This document shows, piece by piece, positions 110 through 50,843 of a stretch of 64,000 bases of DNA. The translations under genes were made by a program, and so were the position numbers. Position 1 is the first letter of the stretch; every line of letters begins with the position of its first letter. Source of the stretch: Flavobacteriales bacterium (lineage in GTDB: Bacteria > Bacteroidota > Bacteroidia > NS11-12g > UBA955); contig CANMCY010000002.1 of NCBI GenBank assembly GCA_947496375.1, positions 53,082 through 117,081 on the forward strand, given 5' to 3'. The notes beneath the pieces are model-generated. The model saw only the letters and a list, made by a program, of their open reading frames with translations. It ran no database searches and had not been told where the DNA came from.

Positions 110-1839
110 GTGTTGTAAGGGGTTAAATGCCTGTTTTCTAACGTATATACAGAATCGCAAATGTCGAAAACTTTTTCGCGATGCGCAATAATGATGAGGG
201 TTTTACCGAGATTTTTTAAGGCAAGCAGGTGAGAAAACAAGATTTTCTCTGTGGCATCGTCCAGCGCACTGCTGGGTTCATCCAGAATCAGCACCTCGCT
301 GTTGTGGTATATGGCCCTTGCCAGCGCTAGTCTCTGTTTTTGCCCTTCACTCAGCCGGGAACCATGATCCCCAACCTCCTCTTTGAGTATGTCGCCGGCG
401 GCTTCAGGCCAGGTAAAGGCGGCCATATCCAGGGCCTTCAGCATCCGGGATTCTTCCTTTTCCTCAGACCCAAAAACCACATTATCTGCGATGCTTCCAT
501 TGATGATGTAAGGATCTTGACCCAAATAGGAAAATAATTCCAGGGCACTGTGCTGCTCATCCATTTTCAGATCATCCACGATTACCTCACCGGATGCGGG
601 CTGATAATAACCCATCAGCAGCTTCACCAGCGTAGATTTCCCGGCACCGGAAATCCCTCGGATACCAACACACTCACCTTTGCGAATGCTAAGGTTCAGG
701 TTGCTGATAATTTCAGGTTTATCGCTAAACGCAAAATGAATGTCTTTCATCACTATTTGCTGTTTAAACGTACTGATATTTTTCTGTATATGGGACTTTT
801 CAGCCACCACCGGCCTAAGCTGTTCATAGGTGTATGCACTCAATTTCAGGTGCATTAAACTCTGCAAAACGCGGTTGGCAGCGGGCAACATTCTAAACAC
901 TGCAATGGCAAACAGCGCAGCCAGGGCGCGCACCTGACCTATATTATCACTGGAGAAAAAATAGGCATAAATCACCAGCAGGGTAATGCCCATCAGCGCT
1001 ATCATTTCGTTCACCCTGAACGGCAATGTCTGCAGGTTGATAGCACGAATTCCGCTTTCGGAAAAACCCCGGAAATGCCGCAGCATTTTTTCACGGAAAT
1101 AATCCTCCGCACCATGGGTGATAATATCAGTGAAACCACCACTGCCGTAGTTAATTTCCCGCAATGCCCTGTCTCTGAATTGTGCTCCGGCCTCGCCCAG
1201 TTCTGTAATTCGCCTTCGCGCAAACCGATTCACCAGAAAAAAACCACCGCCAATCAACCCGACAATGAGAAAAAAGATGAACGGATTGTACCAGGTAAAA
1301 AATGCGGTAAGCAGCACCACAATGGCCATTTCACTCATGAGGGTCAGATACGGGATGTAGCTTCCGGAAACGAAATAAAACGGCGAAAAGAACACCACTT
1401 CGTTAAACCCGGGCCCATCGTGATTGAGGCGGTCGTAGGATCGGTCCTGAAAAACACGGCTATAAGCCCGACCGGAAAGACTCAGCGCAATTTCAGAAGC
1501 GGTTTTACGAATGTATTGCTGCAGAAAAAATGCCAGTATTCCTTTCACCAAAAAAAAGAAAAGAATGATGATGATAAGGGTTTTCAGAAAATTGGCCTCA
1601 GAAGTAAATCCCAGCTGGTGGAAGATAAACCTCAACTTGCTGCTTTTTTCCAGAAAAGAATGGTCCAGTGCCAGCATTAATACGGGAACCATACTTCCCA
1701 AACCAATGATATCCGCAAAGGCAAGTAAGGTCTGACCGAAAATAATCAACCGGGTTCTGCCCTGCTGCACCGGTGTGAGCAATTGCCTGAAACCCCTGTG
1801 GGCGGTGATGATAATTTGCCTTGCGTTCAATGAAGGCAA
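106..1839 (-). CDS. ABC transporter, fused permease/ATP-binding protein (type I exporter, MsbA-like)
   Basis: 577-aa ORF with an N-terminal multi-TM region. The C-terminal ABC ATPase carries Walker A GISGAGKST, the signature LSEGQKQRLALARA and Walker B ILDEPSSALD. Confidence 0.85.
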   Translation of the reverse strand: MPSLNARQIIITAHRGFRQLLTPVQQGRTRLIIFGQTLLAFADIIGLGSMVPVLMLALDHSFLEKSSKLRFIFHQLGFTSEANFLKTLIIIILFFFLVKGILAFFLQQYIRKTASEIALSLSGRAYSRVFQDRSYDRLNHDGPGFNEVVFFSPFYFVSGSYIPYLTLMSEMAIVVLLTAFFTWYNPFIFFLIVGLIGGGFFLVNRFARRRITELGEAGAQFRDRALREINYGSGGFTDIITHGAEDYFREKMLRHFRGFSESGIRAINLQTLPFRVNEMIALMGITLLVIYAYFFSSDNIGQVRALAALFAIAVFRMLPAANRVLQSLMHLKLSAYTYEQLRPVVAEKSHIQKNISTFKQQIVMKDIHFAFSDKPEIISNLNLSIRKGECVGIRGISGAGKSTLVKLLMGYYQPASGEVIVDDLKMDEQHSALELFSYLGQDPYIINGSIADNVVFGSEEKEESRMLKALDMAAFTWPEAAGDILKEEVGDHGSRLSEGQKQRLALARAIYHNSEVLILDEPSSALDDATEKILFSHLLALKNLGKTLIIIAHREKVFDICDSVYTLENRHLTPYNT

Positions 1840-1897
1840 AGGTACGTCGATAAATGGATTTTGTAAATTATGCCCTTTTGTGAACCTTTGCAGTGAA

Positions 1898-2860
1898 ATG
1901 CAGAAAGAAACTGTTTTGGTGATTGGTGCCTGCGGACAGCTGGGTACTGAGCTTGTGGAAGCCCTTAGGGGTATTTATGGCGAAAATCATGTGGTGGCCA
2001 GCGATGTGAAAAAAAGCGATAATGCCGTTTTTCAGACCGGCCCATTTGAAACACTCGATATTTTGGATAAACCCCGGCTGCTGGAAATACTGGAAAAGTA
2101 TAAACCCACCCAGGTGTATCATCTGGCAGCCCTGCTCAGTGCAACGGCTGAAAAAATGCCTGAATTTGCCTGGAAACTCAATATGGACGGTCTTTTTCAC
2201 CTGCTGGATGCAACCCGCGATACCGGCATTGTGAAAAAAGTGTACTGGCCCAGCAGCATTGCGGCTTTCGGGCCGAACACCCCAAGGTTCAACACCCCGC
2301 AGTATGGCGCCATGGATCCAACCACGGTTTACGGCATCAGCAAACTGGCGGGTGAATTGTATGCACAATACTATTTCAACCGCTGGGGCGTAGATACCCG
2401 CTCATTGCGTTATCCCGGGCTGATTGGCTATAAATCAGCTCCCGGCGGCGGCACTACCGACTATGCCGTATCCATCTACCACGATGCACTTACCACCGGC
2501 AAACACCACTGTTTCCTAAAACCCGGCACCATATTGCCCATGCTGTATATGCCCGATGCGCTGAAAGCCACGCTTGACATTATGCATGCGCCGGCAGAAA
2601 AAGTAAAAATCCGAAGCAGCTACAACCTGGCGGGCATGAGTTTTGGTCCGGAAGAAATTACGGCGGCCATTCAAAAGCACATTCCCGGATTTGAGAGCAC
2701 CTACGAACCCGACTACCGACAGGCCATTGCCGATTCATGGCCCGCCGTGATAGACGATAGCAGGGCCCGCGAAGACTGGGGCTGGAAACCCGATTATGAC
2801 CTCGACAGGATGACAGCAGATATGTTGGAAAACCTGAGGAAGTTGAGAGTTAATAGTTGA
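1898..2860 (+). CDS. NAD-dependent epimerase/dehydratase family protein, probable SDR-type L-threonine 3-dehydrogenase
   Basis: N-terminus VLVIGACGQLGTELVEAL (Rossmann motif) and catalytic YGISK (YxxxK). About 320 aa from the ATG at 1898; the listed ORF extends upstream from 1775. Family assignment is solid; the specific substrate is inferred. Confidence 0.6.
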   Translation: MQKETVLVIGACGQLGTELVEALRGIYGENHVVASDVKKSDNAVFQTGPFETLDILDKPRLLEILEKYKPTQVYHLAALLSATAEKMPEFAWKLNMDGLFHLLDATRDTGIVKKVYWPSSIAAFGPNTPRFNTPQYGAMDPTTVYGISKLAGELYAQYYFNRWGVDTRSLRYPGLIGYKSAPGGGTTDYAVSIYHDALTTGKHHCFLKPGTILPMLYMPDALKATLDIMHAPAEKVKIRSSYNLAGMSFGPEEITAAIQKHIPGFESTYEPDYRQAIADSWPAVIDDSRAREDWGWKPDYDLDRMTADMLENLRKLRVNS

Positions 2861-2864
2861 CAGT

Positions 2865-3420
2865 CTACAGTTGATAGTCTGTCCGTGCCTGAATAAGGTT
2901 GACCGTTTTTAGGTTTATTATTTTACACTTATTGTAGCTCCATAGGAGCGAAATATTACTAGCGCCGAAGGCGCGGCATATCGATGTTGTTTCTGCCAAT
3001 ATGCGACCCCCTTCGGGGTCGAGCATTCCATGCGCCGTTCCGGCTAGAGATGTTTGACCCCTTCGGGGTCAGCGCTGCAGGCGTTGTTCAAAAAGACAGG
3101 GGGGTTCTGCCAATAGGACTCGGTAGCCACCATAAATAGTCGTGACCCCGAAGGGGTCAAACATCTCTAGCCCCGTAGGGGCGACATTGGGAATTCTACA
3201 GATAGGTTTAGGAAACAGCCATGTAGCCAGGAACAACCCATCCAAGGTTGGGGTTGCATCGGTATTAAAAGCCAGACATGGAATTTTAAATATAGTTTCG
3301 GTATTAACCATGTACAAGCAGGACCCCAACGGGGTTATACATCTCTAGCCCCGTAGGGGCGAAAAAATCGACCCCGGAGGGGTCGTACAAACGAGGATGA
3401 ATTTTGTGGTCTGTGGGCAT
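2865..3420. repeat. Cluster of GC-stem/tetraloop hairpins with internal inverted and direct repeats
   Basis: Hairpins include gaccccttcggggtc (x2), gaccccgaaggggtc, agccccgtaggggcg (x2), gaccccaacggggtt, cgaccccggaggggtcg and gcgccgaaggcgcgg. ggctagagatgtttgacccc (~3036-3055) is the inverse of ggggtcaaacatctctagcc (~3153-3172). catctctagccccgtaggggcga is directly repeated at ~3163 and ~3340. Confidence 0.8.
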
Positions 3421-3661
3421 GCCAACCACGTTTCTATGGATGAGAAAACGTATATGCCTGAATTAAAGTGCTGCAAGTATGGTAATCGCCCCTTTAAAAA
3501 ACAACAATATAAACATTTTTATTCGTAGATATTTATTATTTTTGTGGTGCGGGGTTATTGAACTACATTTTCCTTGGTGCGCTCAAGTGATTAAATATGA
3601 ATTTCATTTCGGGTCAATGCTGTTATCCCAATAACCTTTCGACTGATATAATTCAACCTAC

Positions 3662-4525
3662 ATGGAACTGGCGTTACAAAACATAGAAAGTAGAATTTTT
3701 AACCTACGTGGCCAACAGGTAATGCTGGATAGTGATTTGGCAGAAATGTATCAAACAGAAACGAAATACATCAACCGGGCTGTACATAGAAATCCAAGTC
3801 GGTTTCCGTCAGCTTTTGCCTTTCAACTTACTGATGATGAATGGAAATCTTTAAGGTTCCAAATTGGCACTTCAAGAGCAACCCATGGTGGCAGAAGAAA
3901 AGTCCCTACCGTTTTTACCGAACAGGGTGTATCCATGCTATCGGCGGTTCTTAATACAGCAGTGGCCATTGATGTAAGCATCCAAATCATACAAGCCTTT
4001 GTAGCCATGCGCAGAACCTTGGGTAACTTACATGGCCTCTTACAACGCCTGGAGGGTTTGGAAATTAAGCAATTACAAACCGATAGCAAACTGGAGTTGA
4101 TATTGAGTGCTTTAGAAACCAATACCTCACCCAAACAAGGTGTTTTTTTTGAAGGACAGCTGTTTGATGCCCATGTATTTGCCAGCGACATTATTAAAAA
4201 AGCGAATAAGAGTCTGATATTAATTGACAACTATGTAGACGAAACCTCACTGTTGTTGCTCAGTAAGCGAAAAAAAGGCGTTAGCTGCACCGTGCATACC
4301 CATCTGCGTCCTGTATTGAAAAAAGACTTGGAGAAACACAACCAACAATATCCCAGCATCAATATCATTGAAAACAGTAGCAGTCATGACCGATTTTTAA
4401 TCATTGATAATTCTCACCTATATCACATTGGCGCTTCGCTGAAAGATTTGGGTAATAAATGTTTCGCCTTCAGCAGAATGGATGATGTTTTGGGTGATAT
4501 AAAAATGAAATTATTAAAAGTCTGA
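3662..4525 (+). CDS. ORF6N domain-containing protein (KilA-N-like DNA-binding N-terminus), C-terminal domain unknown
   Basis: N-terminal ~110 aa (RIFNLRGQQVMLDSDLAEMYQTETKYINRAVHRNPSRFPSAFAFQLTDDEW...GGRRKVPTVFTEQGVSMLSAVLNTAVAIDVSIQIIQAF) matches the ORF6N family that is abundant in Bacteroidota accessory regions. Confidence 0.7.
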   Translation: MELALQNIESRIFNLRGQQVMLDSDLAEMYQTETKYINRAVHRNPSRFPSAFAFQLTDDEWKSLRFQIGTSRATHGGRRKVPTVFTEQGVSMLSAVLNTAVAIDVSIQIIQAFVAMRRTLGNLHGLLQRLEGLEIKQLQTDSKLELILSALETNTSPKQGVFFEGQLFDAHVFASDIIKKANKSLILIDNYVDETSLLLLSKRKKGVSCTVHTHLRPVLKKDLEKHNQQYPSINIIENSSSHDRFLIIDNSHLYHIGASLKDLGNKCFAFSRMDDVLGDIKMKLLKV

Positions 4526-4632
4526 ATACAAAAAAGAGAACCTAAAAATGAGGGGGCTTGGAATGTGTTAAAAGAAAAATAGCGCGTTCCGCCTTTTCCC
4601 ATCTCTAACATTTCTGTATTACCTTTACCCTC

Positions 4633-5820
4633 ATGTCCGCCGGTGCCATTACCCGCAGCATCTGGGTGCTTTCCCTGGTGAGCCTGTTTACCGACATGGC
4701 CTCTGATATGCTCTACCCCGTGATGCCCGCATACCTTCGCAGCATCGGATTTAGCGTGGCCTTTATCGGGTTGCTGGAAGGCATTGCTGAAGCCGCCGCC
4801 GGACTGAGCAAGGGCTACTTCGGCTACTGGAGCGATATGAGCGGAAAACGCCTGCCCTTTGTGCGACTGGGCTACACCCTCAGCGCGCTTTCCAAACCCC
4901 TTATGGCCGCCATGACTTTTCCTTTGTGGATTTTCTTAGTACGCACCCTCGACCGGCTGGGTAAGGGCATGCGCACCGGCGCCCGCGATGCCATCCTCGC
5001 TGATGCCTCTACCGATGGTAACCGTGGTAAAGTTTTTGGCTTCCACCGCAGCATGGATACCGTGGGTGCAGCACTGGGACCGGCTCTGGCACTGATATGG
5101 CTGTATTTTCGTCCCGGAGATTACATCCCCCTGTTTTTTATCGCCTTCCTGCCGGGCATCATCTCCGTGCTGCTGTTGTTTACCCTCAAAGAACAAAACA
5201 ACCTTGCCCCGCAAGGCAAAACCATCACCTTTAGTGACAGTATGCGATGGCTCAAAACTGCAACGCCCGCATACCGCACCCTGTTATGGGGTCTGCTGCT
5301 GTTTGCCTCCATCAACAGCGCTGAAATTTTTCTGTTGCTTCGCGCCAAAGATCTGGGCATGAGCGACGCCGGCGTTGTAGGACTCTACATTTTCTTCAAC
5401 CTCATTTTTGCCCTGCTGGCCTATCCCCTCGGTCGCCTCTCCGATACCATGGGCATGAAACGGATTTTCCTATTGGGACTGGCCCTGTTCGCAATCACTT
5501 ACCTGGGCATGGCCCTGCTTAGTTCCACTACTGCCATCATTGCGCTGTTCTTTGTTTATGGGGGATTTGCTGCTGCCACCGACGGACTTGCGAAGGCATG
5601 GATTAGCAAGGTGTGCGGCCCCCGTGAAAAAGCCGTAGGACTGGGCACATTTGCCGGGCTGCAAAGTCTGTCGTTGCTGCTGGCCAGCGTTTGGGCCGGC
5701 TTGCTGTGGGATATCGCAGGCCCTATGACCGTTTTTCTGCTGACCGCCGGCCTAAGCATTCCCGTGGGTTTGTATTTCCTGTTGAAGGTGAAGGAAATCG
5801 ACCCGACCGAAAAACCTTAG
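4633..5820 (+). CDS. MFS transporter
   Basis: 395 aa with about 12 predicted hydrophobic helices and MFS-like loop motifs (GxLSDRxGxR-like: GYWSDMSGKR, and later GRLSDTMGMKR). Confidence 0.75.
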   Translation: MSAGAITRSIWVLSLVSLFTDMASDMLYPVMPAYLRSIGFSVAFIGLLEGIAEAAAGLSKGYFGYWSDMSGKRLPFVRLGYTLSALSKPLMAAMTFPLWIFLVRTLDRLGKGMRTGARDAILADASTDGNRGKVFGFHRSMDTVGAALGPALALIWLYFRPGDYIPLFFIAFLPGIISVLLLFTLKEQNNLAPQGKTITFSDSMRWLKTATPAYRTLLWGLLLFASINSAEIFLLLRAKDLGMSDAGVVGLYIFFNLIFALLAYPLGRLSDTMGMKRIFLLGLALFAITYLGMALLSSTTAIIALFFVYGGFAAATDGLAKAWISKVCGPREKAVGLGTFAGLQSLSLLLASVWAGLLWDIAGPMTVFLLTAGLSIPVGLYFLLKVKEIDPTEKP

Positions 5821-5876
5821 TCATCTGTGTTTGCTGCGGATTTATAAAAATAACTTGTGAATAATATTACAAGTTG

Positions 5877-5884
5877 TACATTTG
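5877..5884 (+). promoter_or_regulatory. Bacteroidota sigma-A -7 box (TACATTTG, TAnnTTTG consensus) for the PKD lipoprotein gene
   Basis: Motif read directly from the sequence. The ATG at 5907 lies ~23 nt downstream. A 6-bp inverted repeat acttgt...acaagt sits just upstream. Confidence 0.45.
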
Positions 5885-5906
5885 TAATACAAAAAATACT
5901 AATATC

Positions 5907-6620
5907 ATGAAAAACATTAATATTTTACTTTTTGCATCTATGTTGTCACTATGTTTTGCTACAGCATGCAAAAAAGAAAAGGCGAAGCTGCAGCCAGTTG
6001 CTGACTTTATTTATTCAGGTAACAATATCCCGGCTCCTTGTACCGTTACATTTAACAATATCTCTACAAATGCTTCCAGTTACACATGGGATTTTGGAGA
6101 TAATAGCACATCGAGTCAGAAAAGTCCACAGCACACCTACTCAATGGGTGGCGTATACACTGTAAAATTGACCGCAACCGGTGAAGGAGGTTCTAATACT
6201 ACTTCAAAAACGGTTAACATTCAAAATGCACCAACAAAATGCTTCATAAAATCAGTAACTCTTAATGCAATGCCATTTACGGATGGAGCTGGTGCTGGTT
6301 GGGATCCCTTTGATGGACCAGATGTTTTTATACAAATTAAAAATGATGCTGGAACTATCCTTTTTGATGCTACTTCGGCAAGAAAAGAAAATATAGTATC
6401 CACCAATTTACCGATAAAGTGGAATATTACTACTCCAATTGAAGTAACACCCTTGAATGTTAGAAGGAATATTTATTTATACGATTTTGACTCGTTCGAT
6501 CCCAATGATTTAATTGGAGGAGTTGGCTTTTTCCCAAGTTCATTTACTGCGGGCTATCCAAATAGCGCAATGGTTACTTATCAGGGTGTAACTTTTGTTT
6601 TAGAATTACAATGGCAATAA
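5907..6620 (+). CDS. PKD domain-containing lipoprotein
   Basis: Lipoprotein signal MKNINILLFASMLSLCFATAC. PKD-like segment YTWDFGDNSTSSQKSPQHTYSMGGVYTVKLTATGEGG. Confidence 0.65.
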   Translation: MKNINILLFASMLSLCFATACKKEKAKLQPVADFIYSGNNIPAPCTVTFNNISTNASSYTWDFGDNSTSSQKSPQHTYSMGGVYTVKLTATGEGGSNTTSKTVNIQNAPTKCFIKSVTLNAMPFTDGAGAGWDPFDGPDVFIQIKNDAGTILFDATSARKENIVSTNLPIKWNITTPIEVTPLNVRRNIYLYDFDSFDPNDLIGGVGFFPSSFTAGYPNSAMVTYQGVTFVLELQWQ

Positions 6621-20842: not shown

Positions 20843-21190
20843 CTACGCCGTGTGGTTGGTGTCCCGCCAATCACTGTTTTAGACAGTCGGGGATGACGCC
20901 AACCGTAGGGTAAATCTATGATTAATCCGTTATTTCACTCCTTCGGAGTTCCGTGTATCGATTATGGCATTTTCTATGAAAATGCCGCTCCTTCGGAGCT
21001 AAGCAAACCCTTTTGCGACCTGTACCGTCGCCGTGTGGTTGGCGTCCCTGCCAATCAATGTTTTAGGTGGTCGGGGATGACGCCAACCGTAGGGTAAATC
21101 TATTATTAATCCGTTATTTCACTCCTTCGGAGTTCCGTGTATCGATTATGGCATTTTCTACAAAAATGCCGCTCCTCCGGAGCTAACACC
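20843..21190. repeat. Two tandem ~182-bp copies of the dispersed hairpin-module repeat
   Basis: Unit runs cgccgtgtggttggYg...cactgttttag...ccaaccgtaggg...cactccttcggagtt...ggcattttcta(tg/ca)aaaatgcc...gctcc(ttcg/tccg)gagc. Copies begin at 20847 and 21029. Further hairpins gccccgtaggggcg and gcgccgtaggtgcggc follow at 21249-21315. Confidence 0.85.
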
Positions 21191-21368
21191 CATGGCTGTC
21201 CGTCGGGCTTCAGGTTCGTATTTCCGACAAACAAGCAGGGCACATCAAGCCCCGTAGGGGCGATATCTTAATAACACCGTCTAATAACCACACCTCAGCG
21301 CCGTAGGTGCGGCATATACAACGCCGATAACGCAGTAAACCTGCTGATATACCTGAAATAGAACTCCC

Positions 21369-49607: not shown

Positions 49608-49654
49608 CCTCTGTGTCCGAAGTTGGTAGACTTCGTGAAGCGGTGTAACTTTTC

Positions 49655-50290
49655 TATGCCACTCCTACGGAGTTGAGGATTCGTTTTGCGGCTGTGTTAT
49701 TAATATATCACCCCTATGGGGCTTTATGTGCGTTGCTTGCAGGCAATACGAACCTAAGACCCACCTTGCAGCACATTTCAGCTCCGTAGGAGCGGCATTT
49801 TTATAGAAAATGCCATAATTGATACACGAAACTCCGAAGGAGTGAAATAGCGGATTAATCATAGAGTTTCTATGCCGCACCTACGGCGCTGAGGGGACGT
49901 TTTCAGGCGGTGTTATTACTATGTCGCCCCGATGGGGCTTATGCGTCCTGCTTTTAGAAAACACAAACCTGACGTAAACCGGCAAGCCATGCATTTCAGC
50001 TCCGTAGGAGCGGCATTTTAATAAAAAACGCCATAATGGATACACCAAGCGCCGTAGGTGTGACATAACGAGCCAATAACCTTCACAGCGGCTGTCACCC
50101 TCCGGTTTGCGGCCTCCCAAAATGCCTAAAACAGTGATTGGCGGGGACGCCAACTACACGGCGACGGTGTAGGTCGCACAAGGGTTTGTATTAGCTCCGA
50201 AGGAGCGGCATTTTTATAGAAAATGCCATAATCGATACACGGAACTCCGAAGGAGTGAAATAACGGGCATCCGACGCCGCCACACAGCCG
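49655..50290. repeat. Array of >=3 copies (reverse orientation) of the dispersed hairpin-module repeat
   Basis: agctccgtaggagcggcatttttatagaaaatgccataattgatacacgaaactccgaaggagtgaaatagcggattaatcatagagtttc is the reverse complement of the unit at 20900-21000. Further copies lie at ~49997-50065 and ~50111-50290, the latter including the ctaaaacagtgattggcggggacgccaactacacggcgacgg module. Confidence 0.85.
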
Positions 50291-50354: not shown

Positions 50355-50843
50355 TCAGACCACCATCCTTCTAAAAAATGACCTAAACTGCCGCGTTTTG
50401 CGGAATTCAGCAAAGACCTCCTCCGGGATTGCATAAATATCAATGTGTTTATCATACAACGCATTATAAATGTATATCACTTCATCAAAAGTAAGTGGGG
50501 GTTTAAACTCCTGTATCTTAGCTATTACCTCCGCTGCCACCAGCGGCGCATGCATCGCTTCCCTGACCTTGCGGGCGGCAGCACGGCGGTACCATTCGGA
50601 GCGGATGGGTTCATCATAAATAAAATAATGCGTCAAGCCCTCCGTCTGACTATCCAATAGTCTGTCCATATTCTCTTCGCTAAAACAACCCAGTGAACGC
50701 AATTCCTTTTGCAATGCAAAAATCTGGTGTAGCTGTTTCATGAATTCCTGCGGCGGATAACGCATATCACCCTGCCGGTTTTTCGCTTTAAGTTTCAAAT
50801 AAACATCCAGGTATTTATCAATAAAAAAACCCTTGTTTTTCAT
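50355..50843 (-). CDS. hypothetical protein
   Basis: 162-aa ORF with coding-like composition and no signal peptide. No motif recognised. Confidence 0.4.
   Translation of the reverse strand: MKNKGFFIDKYLDVYLKLKAKNRQGDMRYPPQEFMKQLHQIFALQKELRSLGCFSEENMDRLLDSQTEGLTHYFIYDEPIRSEWYRRAAARKVREAMHAPLVAAEVIAKIQEFKPPLTFDEVIYIYNALYDKHIDIYAIPEEVFAEFRKTRQFRSFFRRMVV

Follow-up and report, generated by a model that had tools for sequence, protein, structure and literature searches.

A stretch of 64,000 nt from contig CANMCY010000002.1 of a Flavobacteriales bacterium (assembly GCA_947496375.1), referred to below as the window, carries a cluster of short GC-rich hairpins between an epimerase gene and a gene encoding a protein with an ORF6N domain. 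This region (2937-3398) is an array of nine units resembling repetitive extragenic palindromes (REPs). The hairpins probably represent an array comparable to those of REPs and REP-associated tyrosine transposases (RAYTs), belonging to a transposase-linked family and situated at a rearrangement junction, with the ORF6N gene as an independent accessory gene. Both hairpin sub-types found at the locus are members of a family that has multiplied between the genes of this freshwater Bacteroidota species.

Based on the sequence and the list of open reading frames (ORFs), the intergenic gap measured 801 nt (2861-3661), running from the stop codon of the upstream NAD-dependent epimerase/dehydratase gene (1898-2860; PF01370) to the start codon of the ORF6N gene. 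The hairpins occupied ~450 nt at its 5′ side and the 3′ 260 nt formed a conserved AT-rich leader. An earlier note on this DNA had described a non-coding stretch of 560 bp with at least eight perfect GC tetraloop hairpins. Apart from the length, the loop type had to be corrected: nine perfect hairpins were found (2937-3385; stems of 5-7 bp with CC/GG at the loop end), eight of which have triloops closed by C-G, and a four-base loop (CTTC) occurs only in the 3004-3021 hairpin. Downstream of the ORF6N gene, the locus contains no hairpins.

Two nested repeats described in the same note proved to be real and to extend further. The inverted repeat of ~28 bp consists of two arms of 30 nt (3042-3071 and 3143-3172) that are 100% complementary with 71 nt in between; as single-stranded DNA, 3042-3172 folded far better than shuffled sequences (z = -7.6). 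The 23-nt direct repeat (3162-3184 and 3340-3362, spacing 178) is exact, with both copies upstream of the ORF6N gene and 155 nt of non-coding DNA enclosed, and corresponds to the 3′ end of a 65-nt direct repeat.

Each unit consists of a 13-18-nt GC hairpin followed by a ~12-nt tail, ~25 nt in total, the tail usually ending in TA with G as the next base (for example GGAGC-GAAATATTACTA-G, GGGGT-CAAACATCTCTA-G and GGAGC-GGCATTTTTATA-G). Written as single-stranded oligonucleotides, hairpin-plus-tail units read AGCCCCGTAGGGGCGACAGGTATTTAGAA and TGACCCCGAAGGGGTCAAACATCTCTAGCC. Two sub-types were distinguished at the locus, AGCNCC-GWA-GGNGCG (four hairpins) and (C/T)GACCCC-GAA-GGGGTC(G/A) (five hairpins); they share the hairpin-plus-tail design, and in both a purine-N-A triloop caps a stem of 5-7 bp that has CC/GG at its inner end. 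Where units stand in tandem, each following hairpin begins at the TAG, as seen in the 25-nt period of 2936-2985 and in the double units 3143-3193 and 3321-3371. The nested repeats are therefore arrangements of units, namely a head-to-head doublet, a duplicated double unit and a 25-nt tandem pair. The doublet, formed by 3042-3071 and 3143-3172 with its 71-nt spacer, is REPIN-like and has no second example in the window. Coordinates of the individual features are listed in Table 1.

Table 1. Hairpins, repeat units and associated features, in coordinates of the window.
Feature	Position	Strand	Remark
Hairpin GCTCC-ATA-GGAGC	2937-2949		
Hairpin GCGCC-GAA-GGCGC	2962-2974		
Hairpin CGACCCC-CTTC-GGGGTCG	3004-3021		
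Hairpin TGACCCC-TTC-GGGGTCA	3055-3071		
Hairpin TGACCCC-GAA-GGGGTCA	3143-3159		
Hairpin GCCCC-GTA-GGGGC	3170-3182 and 3348-3360		
Hairpin ACCCC-AAC-GGGGT	3323-3335		
Hairpin CGACCCC-GGA-GGGGTCG	3369-3385		
Two head-to-tail 25-nt units, AGCTCCATAGGAGCGAAATATTACT + AGCGCCGAAGGCGCGGCATATCGAT	2936-2985	+	Consensus matches; third unit in related strains
GACCCC-type unit, CGACCCC-GAAG-GGGGTCG + tail CATATTGGCAGA	2992-3021	-	
GACCCC-type unit, hairpin 3055-3071 and tail 3042-3054	3042-3071	-	Left arm of inverted repeat
GACCCC-type unit TGACCCCGAAGGGGTCAAACATCTCTAGCC	3143-3172	+	Right arm of inverted repeat
AGCNCC-type unit AGCCCCGTAGGGGCGACA...	3169-3193	+	Starts at the TAG closing the tail of the preceding unit
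65-nt direct repeat, copy 1	3120-3184	+	Double-hairpin unit + 23 nt upstream
65-nt direct repeat, copy 2	3298-3362	+	78% identical to copy 1; final 23 nt identical
GACCCC-type unit GGACCCCAACGGGGTTATACATCTCTAGCC	3321-3350	+	AAC loop
AGCNCC-type unit AGCCCCGTAGGGGCGAAAAAATCGA	3347-3371	+	Consensus match
GACCCC-type unit CGACCCCGGAGGGGTCGTACAAACGAGG	3369-3398	+	
AT-rich ORF6N leader	3400-3661	+	Near-identical in L082-L084 and L173
ORF6N gene	3662-4525	+	287 aa
geneB	17173-17547		Reversed in congeners
Second cluster, two consensus units	17552-17650		Directly after gene ending at 17547
Third cluster, four consensus units	20844-21330		184-nt composite repeat twice in tandem + single units
Fourth cluster, seven consensus units	49650-50270		Includes three copies of 74-nt composite; adjoins geneA 3′ end
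geneA	50355-50843	-	Reversed in congeners

Hairpins with a stem of at least 5 bp ending in CC/GG and a loop of 3-4 nt were counted throughout the window and compared with first-order Markov simulations, resulting in 34 hairpins vs ~9 expected. The excess was concentrated in four intergenic clusters, three of which lie away from any ORF6N gene. From aligned copies an 18-nt consensus was derived, AGCNCC-GWA-GGNGCG-RCA (AGCNCCGWAGGNGCGRCA), which matched 17 times in the window when up to 2 mismatches were allowed (0.09 expected); all 17 copies are located between ORFs. The hairpin motif had been considered distinct in sequence from the larger repeat family elsewhere in the window. In fact, four of the nine hairpins at the locus (2936, 2961, 3169 and 3347) share the consensus with the remaining matches at 17.55-17.6 kb, 20.98-21.3 kb and 49.66-50.2 kb.

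Among the consensus copies, covariation was evident between stem positions 4 and 12 (T:A in eight, C:G and G:T in four each, G:C in one). In order to avoid circularity, covariation was also examined in a stem-blind manner, with the loop and tail (CCGWAGGNNNGRNAY) as the sole basis for choosing sites. Of the 18 window sites obtained, 13 had an outer stem with three Watson-Crick pairs, and four more were complete when G.T was accepted (0.3 expected); several different compensated arm combinations occurred among them. A phage origin of the hairpins was rejected, the consensus being present in only 17 stretches of 2.9 million viral contigs.

Larger repeats were also observed at the clusters. A composite repeat of 74-184 nt (20844-21192 as a tandem pair, 17586-17630, 49780-49853, 49998-50071 and 50193-50266) combines an AGCTCC unit with an AT-rich hairpin of 9 bp (GGCATTTTC-TAT-GAAAATGCC) and an ACTCC-GAA-GGAGT unit. 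A distinct 71-nt repeat (CGCCGTGTGGTTGGCGTCCC...CCAATCA..TGTTTTAG...GACGCCAACCGTAGGGTAAA) accompanies the hairpin clusters at 19773-19843, 20844-20914 and 21028-21098, with similar sequence at ~17640-17680 and ~50120-50180.

A link with transposases was found in related loci. Scanning a sequence collection with the epimerase protein yielded 80 loci, from uncultured freshwater Bacteroidota. In one congener (L011, epimerase 93% identical), three such hairpins lie between the epimerase gene and a downstream 165-aa ORF encoding a Y1_Tnp protein (PF01797, E = 1e-25) with the motifs DHIH, WQ and YIQRQEEHH. Its nearest solved relative is IS608 TnpA, and Y-x3-Q-x2-HH was found in 118 of 120 homologues. 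DHIH, WQ and Y-x3-Q-x2-HH together are the signature of 'subclass 1.2' as defined by Quentin et al. 2018 (PMC6006769), described there as low-copy, without IS200-like ends and not behaving like an insertion sequence (IS).

The transposase was subsequently used to scan metagenomes, resulting in 80 loci carrying a transposase clade of 150-165 aa. The density of hairpins of the form NNNCC-loop-GGNNN was 8.2 per kb between -300 and +150 relative to the transposase gene, and 0.5 per kb outside this interval; in intergenic DNA the values near to and away from the Y1 gene were 8.5 and 0.78 per kb, respectively. Control ORFs (at least 120 aa) were taken from these loci as well. Hairpins were present on both sides of 39 of 56 Y1 genes vs none of 86 control ORFs (Fisher p = 7e-22), and on at least one side of 55 of 56 Y1 genes vs 12 of 86 control ORFs. 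The stem-blind test gave 82 of 90 in these loci. Loops upstream of the Y1 gene read GTA or GAA and those downstream TAC or TTC; hence the flanking units are inverted relative to each other and direct their tails towards the gene. Stems flanking Y1 genes were GCTCC, GCCCC, ACCCC, GTCCC, ATCCC and CGACCCC, which includes both types of the locus, and the tails (e.g., GCGACCTGTTTGTAGAA, GTGAAATTATTATAGAA and ACGACATATCGGTAG) follow the same plan as those in the window. Some loci contain long head-to-tail arrays, such as L098 with at least eight 27-nt units upstream of the Y1 gene and an array of 37-nt period downstream. Across Bacteroidota, the family thus brackets Y1 genes in the manner of a REPtron, although the enzyme is IS200-type and the palindromes are much smaller.

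The order epimerase, hairpins, ORF6N is kept in four related genomes, namely L082-L084, in which the ORF6N protein is 98% identical, and L173, a 729-kb contig with ~94% nucleotide identity. In all four, an additional (third) 25-nt unit follows window position 2978. The 65-nt segment is present once in L082-L084 and twice in the window and L173 (a 178-nt segment occurring once or twice), and other indels between strains are bounded by short repeats. Stems are kept between strains and loops vary (e.g., GAA, ATA and GTA). Two sequences look like hybrids: the second unit of the window, of L173 units 2 and 3, and the single L082 copy, of the two 65-nt copies of the window. The 23-nt direct repeat, said earlier to resemble a duplicated insertion site, was rejected as a target-site duplication: both copies are located to one side of the gene, which they do not bracket, their number varies among strains, and they belong to two copies of a double-hairpin unit.

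Consensus abundance was 2.7 per 10 kb in the window and 4.7 per 10 kb in L173. The consensus was almost absent (0-1 copies) from the epimerase loci of congeners and the MFS loci of sister species (L170 and L174), which overlap the gene order of the window in part only. Several short-read contigs (L001, L002 and L084) have an end within the cluster, as expected for multi-copy DNA. Identity of L082 to the window changes from ~88% on the epimerase side (1-1050) to ~94% on the ORF6N-MFS side (997-4127), a step which suggests a putative recombination boundary within the cluster. In L084, a 74-nt insertion with three GGCATGCTGA-containing repeats was observed in the ORF6N leader (~346-429), as well as a 32-nt deletion between TCTGCCA repeats.

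Comparison of the same locus in relatives, which the earlier note had proposed, revealed that its boundaries are not conserved across the genus. In the congeners L004, L005 and L008, the epimerase gene is followed by geneA, geneB and the window block 11614-6672 in reversed orientation. The sister species (MFS protein 88% or 78% identical) have the order DUF179(-), MFS, SDR and no ORF6N gene. Since the locus differs in both congeners and sister species, the hairpins and the ORF6N gene are lineage-specific junction DNA. Three of the four window clusters lie at such junctions (2937-3385, 17552-17650 and 49650-50270), the fourth (20844-21330) being outside the comparison, and L173 diverges from the window directly after the cluster following geneB. 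A simple single inversion was rejected as the cause of the congener difference: the genes on the DUF179 side in the sister species are absent from the window, and the history of the locus is therefore more complex. Similarly, an inversion between L173 and the window over 17.6-49.6 kb cannot be concluded, as the matching stretches are shared repeat units only.

Further differences in gene order were noted in the window. GeneB and geneA, adjacent and convergent in L004 and L005, are separated by ~32 kb (17650-49650). On either side this segment ends in a hairpin cluster, the two clusters sharing the composite repeat in opposite orientations; an island or a repeat-mediated rearrangement could account for it. 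Between MFS and SDR, the window has a PKD-domain gene (5874-6620; 248-aa ORF, GC ~36-38%) that is absent from L173, L170 and L174, where SDR directly follows MFS; this gene is probably a separate recent insertion. A stretch of ~3.5 kb (13694-17207) is replaced by 280 nt in L173, with both sides 94-95% identical.

The ORF6N protein announced in the earlier note was confirmed downstream of the hairpins, with a match to Pfam ORF6N (PF10543) over aa 11-96 (E = 7e-32, 110 bits vs a cut-off of 27.8). The predicted N-terminal ORF6N/KilA-N-like DNA-binding domain is followed by a long helix (aa 100-152, coiled coil) and a C-terminal domain with a phospholipase D (PLD) fold (aa ~157-285). The protein has no sequence relative in the PDB. 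An AlphaFold2 model had a mean pLDDT of 80, with 84-91 for residues 171-260 and lower values at the two ends of the PLD-like domain. Using Foldseek against the PDB, the C-terminal domain matched NucT (6ehi), Nuc (1byr), Zucchini (4ggj), PLD1/2/3 and Tdp1 (E 1e-5 to 6e-4) as well as FAM83, and the whole protein matched the archaeal chromatin protein TrmBL2 (E = 3e-8). The motif H242-D-R244-x4-D249-x7-G257-A-S259-L-K261 has its defining H, R, D, G, S and K invariant in 46 homologues, and the pattern HxR-x4-D-x7-GxSxK was found in 117 of 120 homologues. It does not conform to the canonical PLD motif HxK-x4-D-x6-GSxN; as arginine replaces the canonical lysine, catalysis by the modelled domain is uncertain.

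Homologues of the protein number thousands in Bacteroidota, mostly on short contigs. For four of the five examined on larger contigs a defence context was seen: inside a type I restriction-modification (R-M) operon of the order hsdM-X-hsdS-hsdR (L178), beside an Eco57I-like enzyme (L177), between BREX and McrBC (L088), and adjoining DarT and an integrase (L087); the fifth (L176) has no obvious context. The PADLOC hidden Markov model (HMM) for PDC-S05, PDLC04869, matched residues 4-277 of 287 (E = 3.9e-113). One PDC-S05 representative lowered the plating efficiency of T7 and T5 ~1000-fold in E. coli (PMC12881386). GC content is 37-42% for the gene and its leader, and 50-57% for the flanks. The gene's low GC relative to its flanks and its lineage-specific position bear out its earlier classification as accessory DNA, and point to an independent, horizontally acquired gene of the candidate anti-phage family PDC-S05. 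Within the leader, TATTTTTG (3537-3544) fits TAnnTTTG, the Bacteroidetes -7 promoter element, and may be part of a promoter. On the 3′ side, L173 has a 738-nt segment between the ORF6N and MFS genes where the window has 70 nt (4517-4587), showing that this flank is variable as well; the segment contains a 149-aa ORF (L173 7442-7891) with no Pfam match on record and no NCBIfam match.

Eight loci of ORF6N homologues were searched for the hairpins. A hairpin scan detected none of them in L087-L089, the two hairpins reported in L087 being located in or beside other genes and having unrelated stems, and the consensus had no match in L087, L088 and L176-L178. Because the homologue loci checked lack the hairpins, the ORF6N gene and the hairpins are considered neighbours and not one element. 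Of the small insertion or remnant module proposed earlier, the mobile-type repeats and the lineage-specific accessory DNA thus stand, and the union of hairpins and ORF6N gene in one module does not. In viral contigs, a single-sequence scan gave no close ORF6N-PLD relative. A profile scan of viral contigs (L179-L191, IMG/VR) gave ~11 full-length or near-full-length homologues (44-49% identical) and two partial ones. Many more viral-contig matches cover the N-terminal ORF6N domain alone, which indicates that the DNA-binding domain is shared with phage anti-repressor-like proteins and that its fusion to PLD is rarer there.

Several observations weigh against the hairpins being a transposase-linked, REP/RAYT-like array beside an independent defence-type gene. 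The 64-kb window contains no Y1 transposase gene, its GACCCC-type units are confined to the 2937-3398 locus, and the L011/L090 transposase is flanked by hairpins upstream only. The L011 protein passes the IS200/IS605 model NF033573 (61.3 bits vs a cut-off of 55) and fails the REP_Tyr_transpos model NF047646 (21.5 bits vs 80), and subclass 1.2 is listed without REPs (PMC6006769). With 5-7 bp, the stems are shorter than those of described REPs, in a unit of ~25 nt. Differences among strains look like recombination or slippage, and no insertion or excision event was seen. As to the gene, the PDC-S05 member that was tested is a RhuM-domain protein and does not have the ORF6N-PLD architecture (PMC12881386).

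For a transposase-linked array, the following mechanism is proposed. The units would be non-autonomous elements, processed as single-stranded DNA hairpins by a Y1 transposase that recognises the single-stranded hairpin and cleaves close to where the tail ends. REPs are handled by RAYTs and the ends of IS608 by TnpA, which provides an analogy for the handling of hairpins by Y1 enzymes, and C-G-closed G-N-A triloops would favour stable DNA mini-hairpins of the d(GCGAAGC) type. Arrays would grow by insertion of a unit next to an existing TAG-ending tail, and may also grow or shrink by slippage or recombination between units. Insertion after TAG tails would build head-to-tail arrays with a 25-37-nt period and would mark rearrangement junctions. 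More broadly, and tentatively, Bacteroidota might carry an undescribed REP/RAYT-like system with ~25-nt units, cognate Y1 enzymes of subclass 1.2 and insertion 3′ of TAG tails, a second independent domestication of an HUH enzyme outside the class-2 RAYTs.

Host-selected RNA elements that evolved in place, serving as mRNA 3′-end stabilisers, terminators or insulators with no transposase involved, are an unlikely explanation of the hairpins. The purine-N-A loop lies on the mRNA-sense strand in seven of nine units, G.T pairs occur on the mRNA-sense strand only (four window copies), the clusters follow gene ends, and classical REPs stabilise upstream mRNA (PMC3733652; general knowledge), all of which would suit such a role. 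Against it, Rfam gave no window match at gathering thresholds and sub-threshold matches only in 2800-3700 (E >= 0.1). Further searches showed tRNA and tmRNA genes to be absent and sigma-70-like promoter sites not to be enriched. Nor are the hairpins ordinary terminators, as the earlier note had allowed they might be. Hairpins with a U-tract had no + strand site in 2700-4800, and the three sites obtained (2.4 expected) are all on the - strand. Conserved tails, a strong and specific association with Y1 genes and species-specific abundance are likewise unexpected for evolution in place. An RNA-level role could nevertheless be compatible with a mobile origin.

Tandem 25-nt periodicity, indels of whole units and hybrid units between strains would also fit a local satellite, arising solely by replication slippage and unequal recombination from a short palindromic seed and resembling the repeats elsewhere by convergence. 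This is very unlikely, given that the consensus with its tail recurs at four intergenic sites scattered over 64 kb and at other L173 sites, that slippage is unable to disperse copies, and that the association with Y1 genes extends across 80 loci. Finally, a single small inserted element or remnant comprising the hairpin cluster and the ORF6N gene, with the 23-nt repeat as target-site duplication, is largely refuted and scarcely credible: the lineage-specific position of both between two ancestral blocks, the low GC of the gene and the occurrence of its homologues in islands and some viral contigs agree with it, but the repeat copies both lie upstream without bracketing the gene, hairpins are lacking on the 3′ side, strains have one or two repeat copies with the gene unchanged, the other ORF6N-homologue loci checked are without such hairpins, and the same hairpins occur at three further window sites without ORF6N.

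A limited literature search retrieved no paper containing the hairpin sequences and no description of these hairpins; the adjacent gene belongs to a known candidate family. The only systematic survey reported neither REPs nor IS-like ends for subclass 1.2 (PMC6006769). REP/RAYT systems are best understood in Proteobacteria. If the proposed system is real, the concept of a domesticated single-strand transposase with resident mini-elements would be extended to another phylum and another enzyme class, and a very small (~25 nt), well-defined substrate would be available for biochemistry. The units explain breaks in metagenome assemblies at such loci in this lineage, and they serve as markers of rearrangement junctions and of sites that vary among strains. 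With the adjacent gene, a widespread, often R-M-embedded candidate defence family gains a domain description, consisting of ORF6N, coiled coil and an HxR-variant PLD fold.

The ORF6N gene and the hairpins were each compared with known systems. The gene resembles PDC-S05 and R-M-embedded genes in its full-length HMM match and in having homologues in or beside R-M, BREX, McrBC and DarT loci, and differs from them in standing alone between housekeeping genes. Its C-terminal fold is like that of the PLD nucleases Nuc, NucT and Zucchini (Foldseek E 1e-5 to 3e-8, including TrmBL2), and with TrmBL2 it shares a DNA-binding N-terminus, a long helix and a PLD-like C-terminal domain; sequence identity to these proteins is 12-16%, and the modelled domain has the variant HxR motif.

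As to the hairpins, IS200/IS605 elements (IS608/ISDra2 TnpA) are matched by the L011 transposase, both in passing the IS200/IS605 model and in having IS608 TnpA as closest structure. The geometry of a hairpin with a short linker resembles the right end of IS608. The hairpins flanking the Y1 genes differ from IS200/IS605 in being inverted and not same-strand subterminal, and in that units are dispersed without the gene. The CGTC-tagged Bacteroidetes REPs (Di Nocera et al. 2013) are palindromic intergenic repeats from the same phylum, with 8-9-bp stems, A-T first pairs, 4-5-nt loops and a CCA tail, and were found not to flank any transposase gene (PMC3733652). Identity with this type was ruled out by stem length, loop size, tail and transposase association.

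The hairpins also resemble the REP/RAYT systems of Proteobacteria (REPtrons, BIMEs and REPINs). Shared features are short extragenic palindromes that are numerous and either clustered or in inverted pairs; inverted copies flanking a single HUH Y1 gene, here in related loci and not in the window; lineage-specific abundance; and location at gene ends and rearrangement points. Classical REPs measure ~20-40 nt, placing the present units at the short end. Instead of an unpaired 5′ GTAG or CGTC tag, the units have a conserved 3′ tail that terminates in TA(G); conservation is weak on the 5′ side of the stem, and GTAG sits inside the loop-stem junction. The associated enzyme is of the IS200-type subclass 1.2 and not of the TnpA-REP/RAYT class. 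The hairpin system would work like REP/RAYT, and departs from it in two defining respects, the 5′ GTAG/CGTC tag and the RAYT-class enzyme.

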